Position numbers and translations under genes: made by a program. This document shows, piece after piece, positions 645-64,000 of a stretch of 64,000 nucleotides of DNA (position 1 is the first letter of the stretch; each line of letters begins with the position of its first letter). This DNA comes from Amoebidium appalachense (Eukaryota > Protista > Ichthyosporea): NCBI GenBank assembly GCA_963693365.1, contig CAVNZM010000005.1:7448710-7512709 (forward strand), read 5' to 3'. A model generated the notes under the pieces. That model saw nothing but the letters and a program-made list of their open reading frames with translations. It searched no databases and had not been told where the DNA came from.

Positions 645-681
<37 letters not shown>

Positions 682-784
682 AGGGTAGGTGAGGGATAAC
701 GGTTTAAAAAAATATAAATATCTTGACACACATCCAAATTCCTACTGCATATCCAAAGTATATCCATCCCATATATATATCTAC

Positions 785-2032
785 CTGCACGTGACTGAGA
801 CTGTTTTGCAGCCGCCGCCAGCTGCGCCGCCTGAGCCTTCACCTCCTTTTGATGTTTCGAACTGCTCTCATGCCCCCTATATGTCGCCTCGTTGGAAAAC
901 TTTTTCTTGCACAATTTACAATAGAAATCCGCCGGACTCCTACCCCCGCCCCCGCCCCCGCTTTTCCCAGTGTTTGAACCCGGGGTTAATGCGGTTGGCT
1001 GGTTAGCGCCTTTCGTCGTAGTGGTTGGCGCATTTTGATTGGGTCTTATCGGCGTGTTTTGATTGGTGGTTGTTCTGCTTGGCGTTGTGGTGGTGTGGTG
1101 CAAGGGGGTTTGGGTCCCCCCGGGAGCACCGCCCGGTTTCCTTGGGGTTGTTTGGTTTTTGGATGCGGCAGTGGTGGTGGGGGGTGGGGGGCTCGGTTCG
1201 CGTAATGGGAAAGGGTCGATTTTGAATGATGTGCGGAACGGTTTTCCTCCGATGCTGCCGGCGACGGAGGCGAGAAAGGCGGTGGGTGTGGAGAGGGGTG
1301 GTTCGACTAAGATAGGCAAGAACACTGTAAGGAAGGAAAACGCCAGTTAGAAAAGCTCTATGTCCTAAAAATGTAGGGAAAGTGGGGTCCCGGGGAGACG
1401 GGGGGGGAGGGAGGGAGGGGGGCTCAAGATGCCATGTGAATAGGAAGATAGGCAGAGGGGCCGGTCAACGGGCCACCAAGGACGGAGTAGTGAGGGAGAG
1501 ATGAGGAAGGGAAGGGGGGAGTGGGGAGGGGGAGAGGGGGGGTGTCACAGTGCGCAGAGTACAAAGTACACATTCACGACCGATAAAACCATGCAGATTG
1601 TGCAAAAAAGGGCACACACAAAGTGGTATGCTCAGCTGCTTTTGTGAATGTTTGTCCTGGGGGGAAGAAAAAATAGGGAAGAGAATAAAGAGGAGGTCGC
1701 GGGGAGCGAGGGAGGCGGAAAGAGAGGGTGTGTGTGTGTGGGGGGGGGGGGGGGGGGGGGTGGGAAGGGGGGGTGGGTGGTGGTGGTGGTGGGGGGGGGG
1801 GGGGTGAAAGGGCCCAAGAGACTGAGGGGCAGGAAGGGAGATCAAGAGTTGAGGGGGGGGCGGGGGGGCGGGGGGAGGGGGGGGGGGGGGGGGGGGAGGG
1901 GGGAGTGGGGGCGGAGAAAAATGGTTTGTAGGGCAGAGGGCCGAGAAAAAGAAGGGGAGAAGTAAGAGCCGGAGGGAGGGAAGGAGGGAGGGAGGGAGTG
2001 GAGGATAACGAGAACAGAGGAAAAAGGGAGAA

Positions 2033-3347: not shown

Positions 3348-19127
<15,780 letters not shown>

Positions 19128-21606: not shown

Positions 21607-22389
<783 letters not shown>

Positions 22390-22404
22390 ATACACCCAAA
22401 AAAA

Positions 22405-27639
<5,235 letters not shown>

Positions 27640-30431: not shown

Positions 30432-30915
30432 TTGTCCGCATCCTAAACTATACACATTTTTCCATTTCGACATTATCCCGTATCTTCACATGTATCCCGA
30501 TTTTCTTTGAACCGTCTCCCCCCCCCCCCCCCCCCCCCCCCTCCCCTCCAAGCCATGTTCAAACATGCATTTCGTATCTATGCCAAAATTTCCAAAATGT
30601 ATACAAATACTTACGATTATATCTACTACCCCTAACCCTTTCGGTATCCGGCAATATCATTCATAAACGCCCCCGAACCACCCACGAATTACGCACAAAC
30701 CACATGTGGTCTAAACTATCCCCAGCAAGGCAGGTTTACGTGTAAACTATCCAAAAAACAATCCAAAAGATACGTCAATATTATCCCACTATCACCAGTT
30801 CTTATATACCAGGTGTAAGCTATCCCGAAATTACGACGTCGATATCCGCATATCACCAAGCGCGATGACCGTCCTGAGCACACACAATCTTCTTCCGTGT
30901 AAAACTATCACAAAA

Positions 30916-31154
30916 TTACGCCGGGACTATCTCACCACCGCCATGCAGCAGCCTCCCCACGACCTCCACCATGCCCAGCAGGGTGATGGGTTTAGTCATC
31001 CAGTCGTCGAAATTTCGCCTCTCGGGGGATGACTCGTCGGGGACTTGGAAACTGGCAGAGAGGGCCACCACCTTGGGATGCTGCAGTGGGTCGATTTGTT
31101 AAAATTCAAATTGCAAGAGATCGTGAGGATTTTTGTGTATGAAATGCGTGATAA

Positions 31155-31205
<51 letters not shown>

Positions 31206-31452
31206 AAACACACCTTTCTCTCATGTCCCCCCCCCCCCCCCCCCCCCCCCCCCCGTCCCCTAAAAAAGAAAAAAAAAAAAAAATTCCAGGCAGATAATCA
31301 ACCGAGTAACGGAGGCCGCGCGCGCGCATTGGTGTCAAAGGGGTAGGGGCCGAAGGGAAGGGAAGGGGGGGGGAAGACCAATAACGAACCTTCTGTGTAT
31401 CCGTAGCCTTTATTCTTGCTGCCGCTGAGTAGCCATCCATCACCGGCATCTG

Positions 31453-31497
<45 letters not shown>

Positions 31498-31528
31498 GTC
31501 AGCAACACATGCTTTTAGCCCTACGTGT

Positions 31529-31570
<42 letters not shown>

Positions 31571-31726
31571 ACACCCCACCCCACCCACCTAAAAAACAAA
31601 AAAAACAAAAAAAACAAAAAAAACAAAAAAAAAAACGGCTCCTGCCTGATCTTAGTTTTTCCTTGCGGGATTAGAATGATTCACAGAAAACGAAGTACAC
31701 GCTCACAACAGAAAGCACAATGCCTA

Positions 31727-31763
<37 letters not shown>

Positions 31764-32590
31764 CATGGTGGTGGTGGTGGGTAGGTGGTGTGTGTGTGTG
31801 TGTGTGTGTGCCATGGTGGTGGTGGTGGGTAGGTGGTGTGTGTGTGTGTGTGTGGGGGGGGGGGGGGAGGGGGGAAGGGGTGCGATGGAGAGAGGAACAC
31901 ACAATTGTAGGGCGGACATTCGCACAAACATAAAACTCACCCACCCACCCACCCACCCACCCACCCACCCACACCCACCCACACGTAAACCCACCTGTAT
32001 GTCCATGAACACGAGGTCATATGCTCTCTCAGTCGCCTCCTCCACCATCCTCACCCCTACCTCTCCGTTTTCCGCCAAGTCCACATTTTCGAACCCTAAA
32101 CTTTTCAGTAATTTCGACACCACCAGCTGGTTCAACCGATTGTCCTCGACGACCAAAACCCGGATGTTCGCGTTTTCCGGATTGAAATGCGGACCTCTCA
32201 TTACAGATTTTGACCCGGAATCCGTTTTGGTTGACCTGCTTTCGTCCGAATCGGTTCGGCTTCTCTTCCGGGCCACCCGTTCCCTCGACCTGCAACTCCT
32301 TTGCCTCCTCGTTTGACGGATGGTGGGGTTTTTGGCGTCGGCCTGGGGTTCTTCGTCTTCCTGAGGTGAAATTTCATCGCAATCGTTTTCGATCAAATCC
32401 GATCCGTGGTTGCTGATCTCCCCCTCTGAGTCATCGATATGGGGCCTCTTGCTTGACTGCTCCAATGACAACCTGTGGTTTGTGGGAAAAGGGTCAGGTC
32501 AGGTTGATGTGCCATAAATAGGTTTGACCTGCTAACAGCAATTTTGGACGGATAGTGGGGATAATGGTTGACCAAGGAATGGTGCACAGC

Positions 32591-32650
<60 letters not shown>

Positions 32651-32713
32651 TTGCGCGCGCGCGCACACACACACACGCAAGCGCGCGCGCGCACACACAG
32701 ACACACACACACA

Positions 32714-32749
<36 letters not shown>

Positions 32750-32811
32750 GTCCTGCGTAAATCTCCACCGACCCGCCCACCCCAGCACACAACACACACA
32801 ACACACACACA

Positions 32812-32872
<61 letters not shown>

Positions 32873-33380
32873 ATCCGCAAGAATTCCGCCCTTACCTCTG
32901 GCTGCTCTCAAACGACAGCAAATGGCTGATGTCCTCCTCCTTTACATTCGGGCCGGTCCACCCCTTGCGACCCGGTTCGTTGCAGTTCGACTCGACCCGC
33001 AAGGTGAGCACCATATCCATGGTTGTGCCCTTGCCGACGGCCGTGTTCAAGGGGTTAACCCCAATGGTGCCGGCCATGAGTTTAACCAGTTTGCTGCAGA
33101 TGGCTAGCCCCAGCCCGGACCCCCCGTACTTGCGCGTGGTGCTGGCATCGACCTAAAATGGGGGAAGGGGGAGGGAAAGGGGGGGGGGGGGGGGGTAGTA
33201 AAGGTAAGCGCATAACGTCGGGGGTTGAGGTCAAATTGGCTTTTGCAAAACGTTCACCAAAAGAAAATCAGGCGGAGGCAAAGACAACCAGGCAGATACA
33301 ACGAAAAACAGGGGATAAAAAACGAGCATCAGTGATAAATCAGGGAAAATCAGGGATAGCCAACAAGAGAACCAGTGAAA

Positions 33381-33438
<58 letters not shown>

Positions 33439-33734
33439 AAAAAAAAAAAAAAAAGACGGGCATAAGCCAACGAAAGTCGGTGATCGGTACATTAGTAGAT
33501 TAAACAGCAAGGGCTTTCGGGCCAAAAACATGGGTACAGACACACAACAACATACCTGCGTGAACGAGTCGAATATAGTCTCGTACTTATCCGGGGGTAC
33601 CCCTATACCCGTATCCTCCACAGAGAACCTCAAAGTCACGTGATCACCGGTCCTCGACTCGACGTGGCAGCCAATCGTGACACGACCACCAGACGGCGTG
33701 AACTTGAGCGAGTTGGACACGAGATTGTTGAGAA

Positions 33735-33797
<63 letters not shown>

Positions 33798-33803
33798 TTT
33801 GTG

Positions 33804-33838
<35 letters not shown>

Positions 33839-33986
33839 CAGCAGTGTGTTTCGGGGTATTGAGTATACATACATTCACGACCGACGACACAATCAGATTT
33901 TGTGCAAAAACACATAATAAGAGTATGCATCCTAGGCACAGCTCTTTAGAGGCCTGCGGGGAGGAGATGCCGGAAGAGAGGTGGGG

Positions 33987-34022
<36 letters not shown>

Positions 34023-34100
34023 ATCGAGAAGCTCATTAACTCCAAACTTCTTCTCTTTTCTCAAAGAAAGTAAGAAGGGAGAGGGGAAGAAAAAAAAAAA

Positions 34101-34142
<42 letters not shown>

Positions 34143-35046
34143 AGAAAAAAAATAAAAATAGAAATAAAAAGGGCAAGGAAAGTAGAACACACCTGCAGTA
34201 GCCGTGTGCTATCAGCCATTACACTTGTGGGCACGTCTCCTCCCAGCTCCACACTCAGACACACCCCCTTGTCCTCGGCTGCCCGCTGGAACAGGGACTG
34301 GGTCTGAAGGGGGGGGGGGGGGGGGGACATGTGAGATGGAGACATTGCGAAAAACAGACCCCTTCAGCCCAGCCCTCCGCAGAACCAAACACACACACAC
34401 ACACAAGCCCCCCCCCCCCCCCCAACCCACAAACACGAATATACGCACACACGCACAGTCCTCGAACACAAACATACTCATCCACATACATGCACAACCC
34501 ACACCTACATGCACACACATAATCACACATATCCCACATACCTCATGCAGCAATCCAGCGATCCTGATTGGTCGCATCTCCAGCTCGACCTTATAACACT
34601 CCATCTTGGAGAATAGCAACACGTCATTTAAAATGTTTAAAAGATAACGGCTGCTCGTCTTTAGGGTGTCCATAAGCTCCCGTTGCTCAGAGGTAAGCCT
34701 GGAAGCTGCTAGAAGGTCACCAGTGGTGATGATCCCGCTCATTGGAGTGCGGATCTCGTGCGACTAGGTGTGTGTGTGTGTGTGCATGTGTGTGTGTGGT
34801 CATGCGCGGGGGGGGGGGAGGGGAGGGGGGGGAGGGGGGGGGAGAGAGAGAGAGAGAGGGGGGGGGGGGAAGAGGGTGTTAACAGAGTACGAAGCACAGA
34901 TTCACGACGAACGAACAACAAAGCAGGGATCAGGAAGGAAGAATGGAAAATGAGAAGCCACTACAAAACATGTTCTAAGACCATTTAGGTCAGAGTTAGC
35001 ATACCATTTTGACGTTCAACACAATGCCAGTAGTGCCATCAACCAT

Positions 35047-35094
<48 letters not shown>

Positions 35095-35813
35095 CGACAC
35101 TAGACATGCGATCCATTCTATACCCAAAAAAAGACAATCCCGTAATATACCAAAATAAGGCAATCCCACTGCACACCCAAAAAAGGCAACTCCACTGCAT
35201 GCCAAACATACCATCTGAGCCAGAAACTGGCTCTTTGTCCTCGTGGCCTCCTCCGCCTTGTCCCTTAAAGCCAACGCCGCCTCCTTGCTCCGCCTTAAAT
35301 TCTCCTCGAGTTCCTTTCGCTCCTTTAAGTTGCGTATCCTTTTACGTAAGACGACCTCTTTGTTTTTGGAAACGAAATCCTCAGGCGGAACGTAGTAGAA
35401 GTTGTCGAATACTTCCATGTCCACGTGCGCAACGGGGTGCACGGTGAGGATCTGTGTGTAAGTGTATGTGTACGTGTATGTGTGTGTGTGTGTGTGCGCG
35501 CGTGCGCGTGCAGAGGCGTCAGACACGCAGACACATACAACTGCTCCCCCACATGAAAACTGCTCCCCCACATCAAAACACCTTCCTACCCCACCAATCC
35601 AACCTACACACACAGGAATGTAACAAAACACAACCACAAATTAAGCCACACATACACGAGACACCCGTACACCCAACAAGCCCACAATACATAACACACA
35701 AAATAAACACACACACACACACACATACACACCCACACACATGCGCACCTCTCCTTCCTAACAAAACACACCCACCCACCCACACGCCCACACACACACA
35801 CGCCCGGGGCACA

Positions 35814-35850
<37 letters not shown>

Positions 35851-35981
35851 ACGCGCACACACACCTTTGTGAGGCATGACGGGTGGAACAATCTCATATC
35901 GTACTGGCACATGGCCACAAACCGACTGCCCCTCTCAAACAGCTCGTTGACCTTGGCCTCGTAGTGGCACAGGTGCTGCCG

Positions 35982-36046
<65 letters not shown>

Positions 36047-37765
36047 AGAAGGGGGAGGGGCGGGCGTTAGAATTTGTCACAGAGTATGAAGCACACACTC
36101 GACAGACAACATAATGCAGATGTTGCAAAGCACACACAAAGAGAATGGCAGAGAGAAGGGGAGGGTGAGGCGAGAGGGAGAACGATGGAACCTAACCATC
36201 CAAGAAAAAAACATCGCCTCTCGTTCAAAAAAACCCAAACTAAATATTATAATTTTAAAAGAGTTTAAAAATTTTAATACCTGTCCAGTTGCCGAATGAC
36301 GCTGCCCCTGCCTCTATGCTCCACGTCATGTCTGCTGTGGCCCTCAAGGCCGCATAGCCCTCCTCCACCGCACCAAGCACCAGTCCCTCCATCGTCCTAT
36401 CAAATTTGGACGTTAATATTTTATAACTTCAGATTAAAGGACATTATGTTACGATCGCTGCTCCATGTTAACGTGATACCCTCAAGGACAATTATTTCTG
36501 GTTGCTCTCGAAATTCATTGAGTTTCGGACGGTGGGCGATAGTGTTGAAACCAGCAAGGAAGATAGAAGATAATTCTTTTGTTAAAAAAAATTAACAAAA
36601 AATAAACAGCAGCCTCCCCCCCCCCCCCCCCCCCCCCCCAATAATAATAATAATAAACAAATAGATCAAGTAAATAAATGAGCAAGTAAAATATGTTAAT
36701 TAACTAGATATCAGCAAACAAACAAACTAACAAACAAGCAAACAAACCAAAGAAATAGCAACAAAAAATAAGAGAAACAACAGATAAAAGGTAAGAACAG
36801 CAACAATCAGAGCAACAAAAATAACGCCACCAACGTAACCACGATTAAAAAAAATAATAATAAAAAGAACCTTTGCGTACAAACAAAAACCGTTGGTGCT
36901 TGATGCAAACAGGGAGTGGTTGCCAGATGTGCGCCTTGTGTGTGTGCAAGTGTGTGCATGTGTGAGCATGTACATGTGTGTGCGCAACGCGCGCACGCCC
37001 GCATGTGTGAGTGTGAGTGTGCGTGTGTGTGCGCGCGCGTGCGAGTCTATGTGTGCGCGTGTATTTGGGAGGGGGGCAAGGGGGGGTGGGGGAGGGGGTC
37101 CAAACCTAATAACCCTGTGGGGGTCGAATTTTCCCTCTGCCAGGTATATCTCCACAGCCGGCTTGAAGACCAGCTGCCCTGACCCTACCAACGCAACGGG
37201 ATCGAGCCCGGCCTCCTCCAGCCACGAACATATCTCGGCTGCAGTGTGGTCATGGTGCAGATATACAACCTGCGAAATATACGGAAATTAAAAATTGAAG
37301 GAATTAAACACGTGCACGAGAATATCTCGGCTGCAGTGTGATCGGGATGTAGATATACAACCTGCAGAAGGGTTAAAAAAAAAAAAAAAAAAAAATGGAA
37401 GGAGTTGTAAACACGTGCACGGGCATATCTCGGCTGCAGTGTGGTTATGATGTAGATATGCAATCTCTGCGAAATTTACTTGACAAAAAAAAAAGGGAAG
37501 AAGTTCCAACTCAGAAGCTTATCTCAGCTGCAATGCGATAATGATGCAGATGTACAATCTGCGAAATATGTGGAAAATGAAAAAAAATAACAAAGAAATA
37601 CGGAAGGAGGTCCAGCCACAAGCATATCTCTGCTGCTGTGTGGTCGTGATACAGAAATACAACCTGTGAAATGTACCGCATTTATTTTAAAGGTAATAGG
37701 CGCGCGCACGGGCGATCTCAGATGCACACTACAACGAGTGCCAGTGAAGCACAAAAAGAGTGTTT

Positions 37766-37820
<55 letters not shown>

Positions 37821-38644
37821 TGCACGGGAGAACACTCCGGCAGAGATAGGATACGTCTAGTGTAAGGTGTGGAGTGTTGGCGGGATTCGAAATCATGCAC
37901 ACACGCAAACACATTTTGGCACACAAACACTGCGTGACACGCATGCGTGCACACACACACACACACATACACACACACACAAACACACAAACACAAGCAC
38001 AAACACGCGAATACACACTTACACAAGCAAAGCGTGTGACACATACGTGCACAAACACGGGTCTTACATGCACAAACACGCACATAACCATGTGCCAGTG
38101 CCCAAAACGTGAAAACATGAAGATGTGACAGCACACTTACATATCATAAGCGTGCACCTGCACACGCACACAGGCAGTGCAACACACACAATCACACACA
38201 CCCACGCGAGCTTTCGCACCGTATGATACACATACATGCACACATGCACGGAAACACACATGCACGTATGCATGTACTGCGGTGCACACATGCAAGCACG
38301 TACACACATAACGCATAGTACCTAATAGTCTCCCCTCCCCCCATACCAAACACGTGGAGCACCCACACCGACAACCACACCCACACACCCACTCACATCC
38401 ACCCATTCACCCACTCATCCGCCCACACCCACACCCGCACCCACACCCGCACCCGCACCCGCACACACACACACACACATACCCTGTGATGATTATCCAG
38501 TCCTCCTTTTACAAAAGCCACCACATTCTGCTTTTTGTCGCTGTCGCTTTCAAACAGACTGCAAATGTGGTCCCCGGGCTTCATTTGCACAGGTTCTCTC
38601 CCGGAACGTGTCGCGAAACTCGAACTCTCCGTACAGCACCCCAT
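30916..38644 (-). CDS. Hybrid sensor histidine kinase: MEDS sensory domain + coiled coil + HisKA + HATPase_c + receiver, about 757 aa, 12 exons
   Basis: Exons 38644-38483, 37269-37106, 36396-36281, 35983-35865, 35451-35212, 34763-34542, 34303-34193, 33735-33556, 33152-32896, 32472-31995, 31449-31390, 31080-30916 (2274 nt, in phase). MEDS motifs: [66 protein letters not shown]. Kinase motifs: H-box [17 protein letters not shown]-box [15 protein letters not shown]1 VEDTGIG, F-box IFDSFTQ, G2 [11 protein letters not shown]. Receiver motifs: [33 protein letters not shown]. Confidence 0.93.
37270..37745 (-). repeat. Tandem array (about 95-100-bp period) of decayed copies of the acceptor plus 5' end of kinase exon 2
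   Basis: Copies near 37361, 37464, 37558 and 37663 (plus a weak one near 37740) each read AG|(G/A)TTG(T/C)A...GCAGC.GAGATA, matching true exon 2 GTTGTATATCTGCACCATGACCACACTGCAGCCGAGATATG. Confidence 0.85.
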
Positions 38645-39010
38645 GTTATGATTAAATAATGATGACAAGCTTCCTTTGGGATTCGTCATATAATAGTTGC
38701 TTCCCGTACTATGGCGTGCTCACTGTTGAGTTAAAGCAGATCGTGGACCGAGGTTCCCGTTTCAAAGGTTTTTTTTGTCCTCTACGATCTATCGTAGTTA
38801 TTCAATCTAATGTCAACCGTTTAAGTCAACTAGTGAGAAAAAAGTCTCCAACCAGTCCGTTGGCTTCCTTGCCAACCGTTCAAATTTTGGTTGATTATTT
38901 CTTGTTTGGAACGACTTCATTGTATAAAACAAACCTTTAGTGCGTGTTTGCTAGGCCGCTGAGGACAGTCTTCTAGAACTATGGCCGAGTCTGACGTCTA
39001 GGACCCGGAT

Positions 39011-47889: not shown

Positions 47890-60136
<12,247 letters not shown>

Positions 60137-62656: not shown

Positions 62657-64000
62657 TTAGTTCTCCGTCTCGTCTTTCCCCACCTTCCTGTACTTGTATT
62701 GCTTCCTCCTATGCTCGTTTCTCTTCTCCTTCTCTCCCGGATACTTAAACTGCAGCCCGTGTTTATTGCACAGCGTCGCGGGTCCCTTTGGCCCTGTGCG
62801 CCACTGTGTCTTATGCTCCCTACCGTTGATGTTGCACCCACCGGGCCACAAACACCGCCTCAACTCTCTTGGAAGTTTTATAACTCTCCCCGTGTGCGGG
62901 TCAACGGGAGGGCCGCCGTAGAGCGATTCGTGGCTGCTGGTCCTGCGCATGACTAGGGACCCCGTGCTCAACCTACGCTGAGGCATGTGTCCAGGATACG
63001 GGCTCATGTGTGAAGGAGAGCACAAGCGCGGGCTCATGGCGGGCGAGCGCGGCTGGGCCGAATCCAGAAGGTTGTCTGCACACGCGTACGGGTCGAGCGG
63101 AGAGAAGGGGAGTGTAGGTGAAGCCGGAGCTGAGAAAAATGGGTCTGCGTGTGTGCCGAGGTGAGAAGGGCCGTCGTTGGGTGCGAACAAAAGCGTGTTT
63201 CTTGGTGCACCATGCTGCTGGTCGGCCAGGTCTCCCCACGGGGCAAAAAAACCTCCTTCAATGCTGTCCCGCGAGTCAAACGGAGAATTACCAGGGCTCC
63301 CAAAGGATCCATCCAGACAAAGCCCAGCAAAGTGTGTGCTAATTTTGAGCATGCCCAGAGACCTACTGCGTGGCCGGCTCAAGTCCCCTCCTCCTTGCGA
63401 GAAATCCCCAGTCAGAATGCCCGAGGGAGGGATGATGTTTACGCCCACTGGTGCGTCAAACTGCAAGTCCGAGTGGTTGCCAAGGCCGAAGTCGATACTG
63501 TCAAAGTTTGTCCCCAGAGGCTGAATAGAATGAAGGGAATTCGTGCTCAGGAGGTCGTGAAAACTCGCTGGCTCAGGCTGCAACCTGGTGGGCTGCTCAA
63601 AACGCCTCTGAGTCAGGTCGTGGTCGGGGACCCTGGACGGATAGTTTGAGGGCGAAGAAAGGTCCCCAAAGAGCGCTGCGCTATCCAAACTGAGATCAAA
63701 GGATCCCATGACATTGTGTTCTTGAAAGAGCAGCCTTGCGAGTTGGTGGGACGCCGGCTCCCGCTGGGATGTGGCCAGAAACTCGGCCACCTCAACCTCG
63801 GTCCGTTTAATGGAGTTGAGCATTCCTGACATGTCGAAAGAGGGCTCGTATGCAGGTGATGACGCTGGTTGAAGTGGTGAAAGGGTGGCGTCGGATAGTT
63901 TATGATTTTGAGGGAAAAGACTCGCTTTAGGGGAGGAAGAGAAACGGGGGCTGTACGACACGTGTATGTTGTTGCTTGGAGATAAGGTTTGGGGACGCTC
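62657..64000 (-). CDS. GATA-like zinc-finger transcription factor, 5'-partial (frame open to the window edge)
   Basis: Uninterrupted ORF of more than 440 codons: a Ser/Pro-rich disordered region, then RRCLWPGGCNINGREHKTQWRTGPKGPATLCNKHGLQF and a basic tail. QWRTGPKGPATLCN..GL matches the plant/fungal-type GATA core WRxGPxGxxxLCNxCGL. Confidence 0.8.
   Translation of the reverse strand, partial: ERPQTLSPSNNIHVSYSPRFSSSPKASLFPQNHKLSDATLSPLQPASSPAYEPSFDMSGMLNSIKRTEVEVAEFLATSQREPASHQLARLLFQEHNVMGSFDLSLDSAALFGDLSSPSNYPSRVPDHDLTQRRFEQPTRLQPEPASFHDLLSTNSLHSIQPLGTNFDSIDFGLGNHSDLQFDAPVGVNIIPPSGILTGDFSQGGGDLSRPRSRSLGMLKISTHFAGLCLDGSFGSPGNSPFDSRDSIEGGFFAPWGDLADQQHGAPRNTLLFAPNDGPSHLGTHADPFFSAPASPTLPFSPLDPYACADNLLDSAQPRSPAMSPRLCSPSHMSPYPGHMPQRRLSTGSLVMRRTSSHESLYGGPPVDPHTGRVIKLPRELRRCLWPGGCNINGREHKTQWRTGPKGPATLCNKHGLQFKYPGEKEKRNEHRRKQYKYRKVGKDETEN

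Follow-up and report, generated by a model that had tools for sequence, protein, structure and literature searches.

A MEDS-type hybrid histidine kinase gene of Amoebidium appalachense, likely one member of an overlooked eukaryotic group

The domain MEDS (for methanogen/methylotroph, DcmR sensory), described from bacteria and archaea, was reportedly predicted in 2005 to bind a simple hydrocarbon derivative. The present analysis concerns a 64,000-nucleotide stretch of the ichthyosporean Amoebidium appalachense (assembly GCA_963693365.1, contig CAVNZM010000005.1, positions 7,448,710 to 7,512,709; hereafter, the window), which carries on its minus strand a gene for a hybrid histidine kinase with MEDS as its input domain. 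Judged from sequence comparisons, this gene is likely to be one member of an overlooked group of eukaryotic MEDS hybrid kinases present in two supergroups. In the literature found, the only MEDS proteins linked to a chemical signal are DcmR of Methylobacterium DM4, described as a dichloromethane sensor in the accessible parts of two papers (PMC8784404, PMC11507031), and EtnR2 of Mycobacterium NBB4, which is needed in vivo for ethylene-oxide induction according to the accessible text of PMC11197473. Both share MEDS with the window protein but are kinase-less transcription regulators, EtnR2 consisting of MEDS alone and DcmR containing also a helix-turn-helix, and their likeness to the window protein is taken from their published descriptions. 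The MEDS kinases of sediment metagenomes and of Methanosarcina acetivorans, where MA2082 autophosphorylates (PMC11784639, in part), are also cytoplasmic with an N-terminal MEDS, 36–42% identical to that of the window, but they are intronless and usually contain PAS, GAF or PocR between MEDS and the kinase (e.g., P0033 and P0049). Ethylene receptors, CHASE kinases, phytochromes, fungal groups I–XI and Dictyostelium Dhk proteins share the hybrid HisKA-HATPase-REC core, whereas their inputs are ethylene-binding helices, CHASE, GAF/PHY, PAS, HAMP or serine/threonine kinase (S/TK) modules.

Twelve minus-strand exons, from the start codon at 38644 to the end of the stop codon at 30916, join in phase to give a frame of 757 residues with a single terminal stop. 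This is in exact agreement with the coordinates of a preliminary description of the locus, made from the letters alone, which had claimed a complete MEDS, HisKA, HATPase and REC protein. The order along the chain is MEDS, coiled coil, HisKA, HATPase and REC. The 11 introns are all GT..AG, measure 238–1213 nt and are rich in microsatellites and homopolymers. The exons are the following:

38483..38644, minus strand: exon 1, residues 1–54, with a strong-context start codon (MGCC N-terminus), MEDS strand 1 with H26 and C28, and the segment in place of the KaiC P-loop
37106..37269, minus strand: exon 2, MEDS profile 31–84, above the Pfam cut-off by itself
36281..36396, minus strand: exon 3, MEDS profile 91–115, with R127, D131 (Walker-B position) and W134
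35865..35983, minus strand: exon 4, MEDS profile 119–153, with Y155, E156, C173 and Y175
35212..35451, minus strand: exon 5, MEDS C-terminus (H192, P193, N204), coiled coil and start of the HisKA helix
34542..34763, minus strand: exon 6, HisKA with the phospho-accepting H269
34193..34303, minus strand: exon 7, linker from HisKA to HATPase
33556..33735, minus strand: exon 8, HATPase N, G1 and F boxes
32896..33152, minus strand: exon 9, HATPase G2 box and start of a linker
31995..32472, minus strand: exon 10, charged linker and first half of REC (E633, D634, D681); its junction with exon 11 is seen in contig loose ends
31390..31449, minus strand: exon 11, REC; both sides spliced in three runs
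30916..31080, minus strand: exon 12, end of REC (S711, K733) and stop; acceptor confirmed

When Pfam was run on each exon separately, MEDS (PF14417) was matched colinearly by exons 1–4, at profile positions 1–30, 31–84, 91–115 and 119–153 of 161, exon 2 being the only one of them over the curated cut-off alone (33.5 vs 29.8 bits). As four separate exons match one rare family in order, the result is not due to chance, and the profile check proposed earlier for the N-terminal region came out positive. HisKA was found on exon 6 (E 8e-15), HATPase_c on exons 8 and 9 and Response_reg on exon 10, all over the cut-off, while exons 5, 7, 11 and 12 gave no match. The spliced N-terminal 215 residues align end to end with the contiguous prokaryotic MEDS protein L083 (36% identity, E 4e-44). 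The four introns said to lie in the MEDS domain are indeed there, three within the Pfam-matched part and the fourth just 5′ of the conserved HP motif. The fusion of MEDS to the kinase sits within exon 5, so no splice assumption is needed for it. The phosphotransfer residues are intact, as had been asserted: H269, N386, D419-x-G-x-G, the G2 box, E633/D634, D681, S711 and K733. The protein is thus a hybrid histidine kinase, for which autophosphorylation and His-to-Asp transfer are predicted from these residues. Its whole N-terminus is occupied by MEDS; CHASE, GAF/PHY, PAS, HAMP and S/TK inputs gave no Pfam match on the 12 exons with E up to 1. No membrane helix is apparent, the top 19-residue hydropathy being 1.58, in the G2 region.

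Concerning the fold of the MEDS domain, the AlphaFold model of the stand-in L083 has a mean predicted local distance difference test score (pLDDT) of 87.8. In Foldseek it matched FlaH (E 2e-7) and KaiC (E 7e-7), and in VIA-align it gave FlaH (Z 15.6, root mean square deviation 3.2, 163 residues aligned) and KaiC CI (Z 13.9, root mean square deviation 3.1, 164 aligned), with the Elp456 subcomplex also a top match (Z 13.7). The model of the eukaryote-type homologue P0023 (pLDDT 80.7; predicted template modelling score 0.53) displays the MEDS topology of L083 and one unbroken helix, residues 206–267, running from the end of MEDS to the phospho-His helix. A profile of 72 MEDS rows headed by the window sequence matched one of KaiC-like ATPases at 96.8%, and a profile from the eukaryote-type rows only did so at 94.9%; the KaiC-like profile comprised those 16 of 20 fetched sequences that have Walker A. 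The KaiC P-loop position aligns with a glycine-free segment at about residues 31–39, and Walker A is absent in 72 of the 72 MEDS rows. The Walker-B Asp aligns with D131, where homologues have Glu (10/13 eukaryote-type, 48/58 other rows). So MEDS has in common with the KaiC/FlaH/RecA ATPases the fold of the stand-in, the profile match and the acid at the Walker-B position, but Walker A is lost, and it would be a repurposed fold rather than an active ATPase. On the models of the two stand-ins, MEDS is of the P-loop-less KaiC/RecA ATPase type and not a PAS-like pocket, which speaks against the known kind of ligand pocket implied at first. The fold and the lost P-loop agree with the published label "MEDS (iKaiC)", an inactivated KaiC-like ATPase, given by Galperin in 2018 (PMC5847659), in the accessible text of which MEDS is also listed as a REC output domain. 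No solved MEDS structure was present among nine weak sequence matches in the PDB, the best of which (E 0.011) was a designed KaiC.

The residues H26, C28, R127, E156, C173, H192 and N204 are kept in 12–13 of the 13 eukaryote-type rows and in 49–57 of the 58 other rows, and W134 is likewise near-invariant. The window sequence matches the family majority at H26, C28, R127, W134, Y155, E156, C173, Y175, H192, P193 and N204. The His/Cys motifs pointed out in the preliminary description are therefore real, but they are conserved family-wide and not special to this gene.

Relatives were sought with exon 5 by phmmer against 1.84 billion representatives, which gave 202 matches, the best 150 of which were examined. 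MEDS was joined directly to a hybrid HisKA and REC in 11 of these 150: five from named eukaryotes, one EukProt entry without accession, five on contigs of 1.3–2.3 kb and none from a named prokaryote. The named holders are Gaertneriomyces sp. JEL0708, Borealophlyctis nickersoniae, Dermamoeba algensis, Stenamoeba stenopodia and Luapeleamoeba hula, to which cluster members add Gaertneriomyces semiglobifer and Thecamoeba quadrilineata, making seven named species, three chytrids (Chytridiomycota) and four discosean amoebae (Amoebozoa/Discosea). All four domains were found by Pfam in 11 full or near-full relatives. The chytrid proteins (Gaertneriomyces KAJ3179254.1 and KAI9011520.1; Borealophlyctis KAJ3294822.1) and the discosean ones (EukProt) are like the window protein in the four domains, their order, the direct MEDS-HisKA join and the conserved residues, but they are on record as hypothetical proteins or raw transcript frames, and the full-length eukaryote-type relatives are only 28–36% identical to it. 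The design is thus shared by other eukaryotes, and the first picture of a singular acquisition does not stand. Two further four-domain proteins came from other searches: L193, on a 2.1 kb contig, was the only direct four-domain form among 80 metagenome loci, and P0162 was the one new protein of the A8 alignment search, which was crowded by bacterial hybrid kinases (MEDS in 2 of 120 listed). The closest of the best 150 exon-5 matches are four short frames, 50–68% identical (P0002, P0006, P0007 and P0100), which run into intron-like sequence and have a common linker one residue shorter than most; by their sequence they are likely exons of related genes. The HisKA profile was built from hybrid-type cores, and the 109 of 150 matches without a detected HisKA may still have one.

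Among sampled prokaryotic genomes, MEDS was present in 14/201, 46/151 and 32/121 for the phyla of G002, G003 and G004, respectively, and in many cases the prokaryotic MEDS protein is a frame of its own, about 210–290 residues long. No match came from searching proteins by word index, either for exon 2 (17 candidates) or for exon 5 (206 candidates), both being weak negatives; in the ESM Atlas, exon 2 gave nothing usable and a Thecamoeba fragment gave bacterial HisKA clusters only; and 91 pattern matches in viral contigs included no relative. Two observations were made along the way. An Obscuribacterales genome encodes a MEDS-containing hybrid kinase of 886 residues (L016:2460-5120), with a response-regulator-like frame directly after it and a sugar-epimerase-like frame before it, both by eye. 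The Borealophlyctis protein P0013 (KAJ3294822.1) has 38 inserted residues in MEDS strand 1, by their look an intron retained in the public gene model.

Splicing was considered in assembled contigs of four runs covering 30800-31455. In three of them (X8, X10 and X12; two study codes) the contigs skip 309 nt, from 31080 to 31390, which is intron 11, so spliced molecules exist; their loose ends run on into exon 10. Run X1, taken for a DNA run, is unspliced and reads into intron 11. The kinds of the runs are guesses in the index, none being on record as RNA, which argues neither for nor against transcription. Upstream of exon 11 the contigs of X8 and X12 contain 2445 and 2302 nt, respectively. The coding sequence predicted there takes up 2049 nt, so that 396 and 253 nt could be leader; these lengths are compatible with one full transcript, without showing it. 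So, of the transcript check that had been proposed, introns 10 and 11 passed in three runs, and this support covers 2 of the 11 junctions, those of the MEDS part resting on sequence. The GC content at third codon positions is 0.69 both in the MEDS part and in the kinase part, and 0.54–0.74 in four neighbouring exons.

Further features lie at the 5′ end of the gene:

38687..38689, minus strand: weak-context start codon, in frame, as an alternative 15 codons upstream
37309..37684, minus strand: within intron 1, the exon-2 acceptor and first codons repeated in four degenerate tandem copies

A 35-codon upstream frame begins at 38920 on the minus strand, and this frame or the start at 38689 could tune translation or the N-terminus. 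The intron-1 copies are 65–82% identical, are spaced by 92–105 nt and contain an AG each. Their use as cassettes was rejected, as a donor-like site in phase 0 is absent; judging by the letters, they are likely decoy acceptors, and the spliceosome would have to pass over all four.

The origin of the gene was approached with two trees. The first tree of the 72 MEDS rows was a quick search with long branches meeting. Its replacement kept 41 rows; dropped were the intron-containing P0078 and 30 prokaryote-type rows, including the long branches L112, L065, L135 and L066. The label "prokaryote" was assumed for rows without an organism name; one of seven such tree rows looked up carried one. In the 41-row tree, 3 label changes suffice for the 13 eukaryote-type rows, vs 11.3 when shuffled; in the free tree they fall in three unsupported places, and a single eukaryotic MEDS clade was not rejected by the approximately unbiased (AU) test (p-AU 0.238). 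The kinase tree, also of 41 rows, contained 14 eukaryote-type rows, 24 of 116 bacterial-type cores and 3 prokaryote-type MEDS kinases. There, the window kinase is placed beside seven eukaryote-type rows with weak support (86/53), 2 label changes are needed vs 11.9 when shuffled, and one clade was again neither recovered nor rejected (p-AU 0.285). By these counts of changes, the eukaryote-type rows cluster in both trees. The window branch is 1.2–1.4 long, which lowers its identity to other long branches. From the two trees, a common origin of the eukaryotic forms can be neither demonstrated nor rejected; one old origin and several transfers are both conceivable. Most likely the family came to eukaryotes out of a prokaryote, at an early time or on a few occasions, with patchy retention since. 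Of the domesticated, horizontally acquired gene of the preliminary description, the domestication stands, the gene being spliced and similar to its neighbours in codon use, while an acquisition by this very lineage does not follow from the trees.

Concerning function, we hold it rather probable that the window protein is an intracellular sensor, the KaiC-fold MEDS domain of which detects a small reactive metabolite and switches a His-Asp phosphorelay. The structural basis of this mechanism, i.e., the KaiC/RecA fold and the continuous helix, comes from the stand-ins L083 and P0023 only. The kinase would dimerise through HisKA, as such kinases do; the emptied nucleotide site of MEDS (H26, C28, D131, C173 and H192) would bind a small electrophile, a metal or a redox signal; the change would travel down the helix and shift the balance of kinase and phosphatase activities; and phosphate would pass from H269 to D681, and from there to a histidine phosphotransfer (HPt) protein and a response regulator encoded elsewhere in the genome. 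For a chemical signal, EtnR2, DcmR and the autophosphorylating MA2082 lend indirect support. A bolder form of this reading, which seems to us quite improbable, is that the ancestor shared by amoebae, fungi and animals already possessed a KaiC-fold sensor kinase, with an emptied nucleotide pocket of Cys, His and Walker-B acid detecting small electrophiles such as halomethanes or epoxides. If true, eukaryotes would have an ancient chemosensory input that has escaped description, and the fold of the circadian clock would have been put to a second use. Several points weigh against the reading that we favour. Direct ligand binding by any MEDS domain was not found in the literature, and ligand binding is called a hypothesis in the accessible text of the EtnR2 paper (PMC11197473); the pocket is putative, as the modelled structures are those of homologues of the window protein. 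In BLAST, the window MEDS is closer to prokaryote-type proteins (40–42%) than to named eukaryotic ones (27–34%), and the kinase core is 46–48% identical to bacterial-type cores vs 26–43% to eukaryote-type ones. A single eukaryotic MEDS clade appears in 6% of bootstrap trees. The kinase tree is devoid of MEDS-less eukaryotic kinases, so its clustering may only reflect the general kinship of eukaryotic hybrid kinases, and six full-length proteins labelled as eukaryote-type have no species name and may not be eukaryotic.

Some of these points would also be explained if this lineage had independently obtained MEDS from a prokaryote and the four-domain order had arisen repeatedly in eukaryotes, which we regard as rather unlikely. 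The best identities go to prokaryote-type proteins, the free MEDS tree scatters the eukaryote-type rows, and direct MEDS-HisKA fusions without REC exist in prokaryotes (e.g., P0113, of a Thermoplasmatota archaeon); on the other hand, one clade is rejected neither for MEDS nor for the kinase core, the long window branch depresses the identities to other long branches, and no named prokaryote shows the direct four-domain form among the best 150 of the 202 matches. An artefact, be it a wrong splice model, a pseudogene or contamination by prokaryotic DNA, seems hardly credible: against the limited read support and the decoy acceptors of intron 1 stand the colinear Pfam matches, the open frame, the spliced contigs of three runs and the eukaryote-type neighbours (cytochrome b561, GATA, C2H2 and AA_permease matches on 4 of 12 neighbouring exons scanned). 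As for what MEDS does, the "small-molecule sensor" of the preliminary description goes back to the prediction of 2005, and the P-loop-less KaiC/RecA fold allows also a role in protein interaction. MEDS could then be an inactivated KaiC-type module that oligomerises or docks a partner, the contact setting the kinase activity. The kinship with KaiC, FlaH and RecA, the match to Elp456, which is inactive, the iKaiC label with its REC output entry and the stand-alone prokaryotic proteins are all in line with such a module; we nevertheless deem it unlikely, as the near-invariant His, Cys and acid residues of the 72 rows fit a chemical site better than a partner surface, and DcmR and EtnR2 are tied to the dichloromethane and ethylene-oxide responses. 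Unlikely to a similar degree is that myristoylation and palmitoylation of the N-terminus tether the protein, with sensing at the membrane and not in the cytosol. An MGCC N-terminus is a possible acylation motif, and it is what the strong-context start yields; however, an MG start occurs in none of 12 homologue N-termini, and the glycine would lie inside the chain if translation began at the in-frame start 15 codons upstream. Thus, of the "cytosolic" protein without membrane helix that had been described, the missing helix holds, while the cytosolic location becomes less certain with MGCC at the likely start.

Returning to the intracellular sensor, the group it would belong to is apparently undescribed, as had been presumed: full-text searches, with most subscription journals outside their scope, found no paper placing MEDS in a eukaryotic kinase. 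In the survey of Kabbara et al. (PMC6324907; 748 kinases, 67 eukaryotes), MEDS does not occur in the text and one supplement, although figures or further supplements could show such proteins unlabelled. In their accessible parts, MEDS is mentioned solely under archaea in PMC6944256 and PMC8142344, has no occurrence in PMC5285503 and PMC4758236, and stands in a prokaryotic context in PMC11796333 and bioRxiv 10.1101/2021.08.30.458270. So the architecture is widespread in part, with seven named species, and not described in the papers found. It is not a new kind of system, MEDS being already annotated by Pfam in public proteins. What it adds to the eukaryotic histidine kinase repertoire is an input domain absent from the portions of the surveys covered and present in two supergroups. 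Among MEDS kinases the eukaryotic one is built most simply, MEDS and the catalytic His being connected by a single helix with neither PAS nor GAF in the path, a design that would make it a clean reporter for what MEDS detects, be it as ligand pocket or as docking module.

The rest of the window contains genes of eukaryotic type. On the plus strand, a multi-exon cytochrome b561 gene lies at about 22369-26092 (Pfam E 2e-12 on one exon), and exons at about 6800-15600 resemble by eye a TMTC-type membrane protein, neither of the two exons scanned matching in Pfam. On the minus strand, a multi-exon transporter gene at about 48700-59600 has an AA_permease match on one exon, and we take it, by eye, to resemble the SLC12 cation-chloride cotransporters. 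At 62660-63115, also on the minus strand, there is a GATA-type zinc finger below the Pfam cut-off (E 6e-5), with the fourth Cys position apparently occupied by His (CNKH), which belongs to a longer gene extending past the window. A C2H2 zinc finger of the jaz/met type is found at 669-977, minus strand (Pfam E 5e-9).

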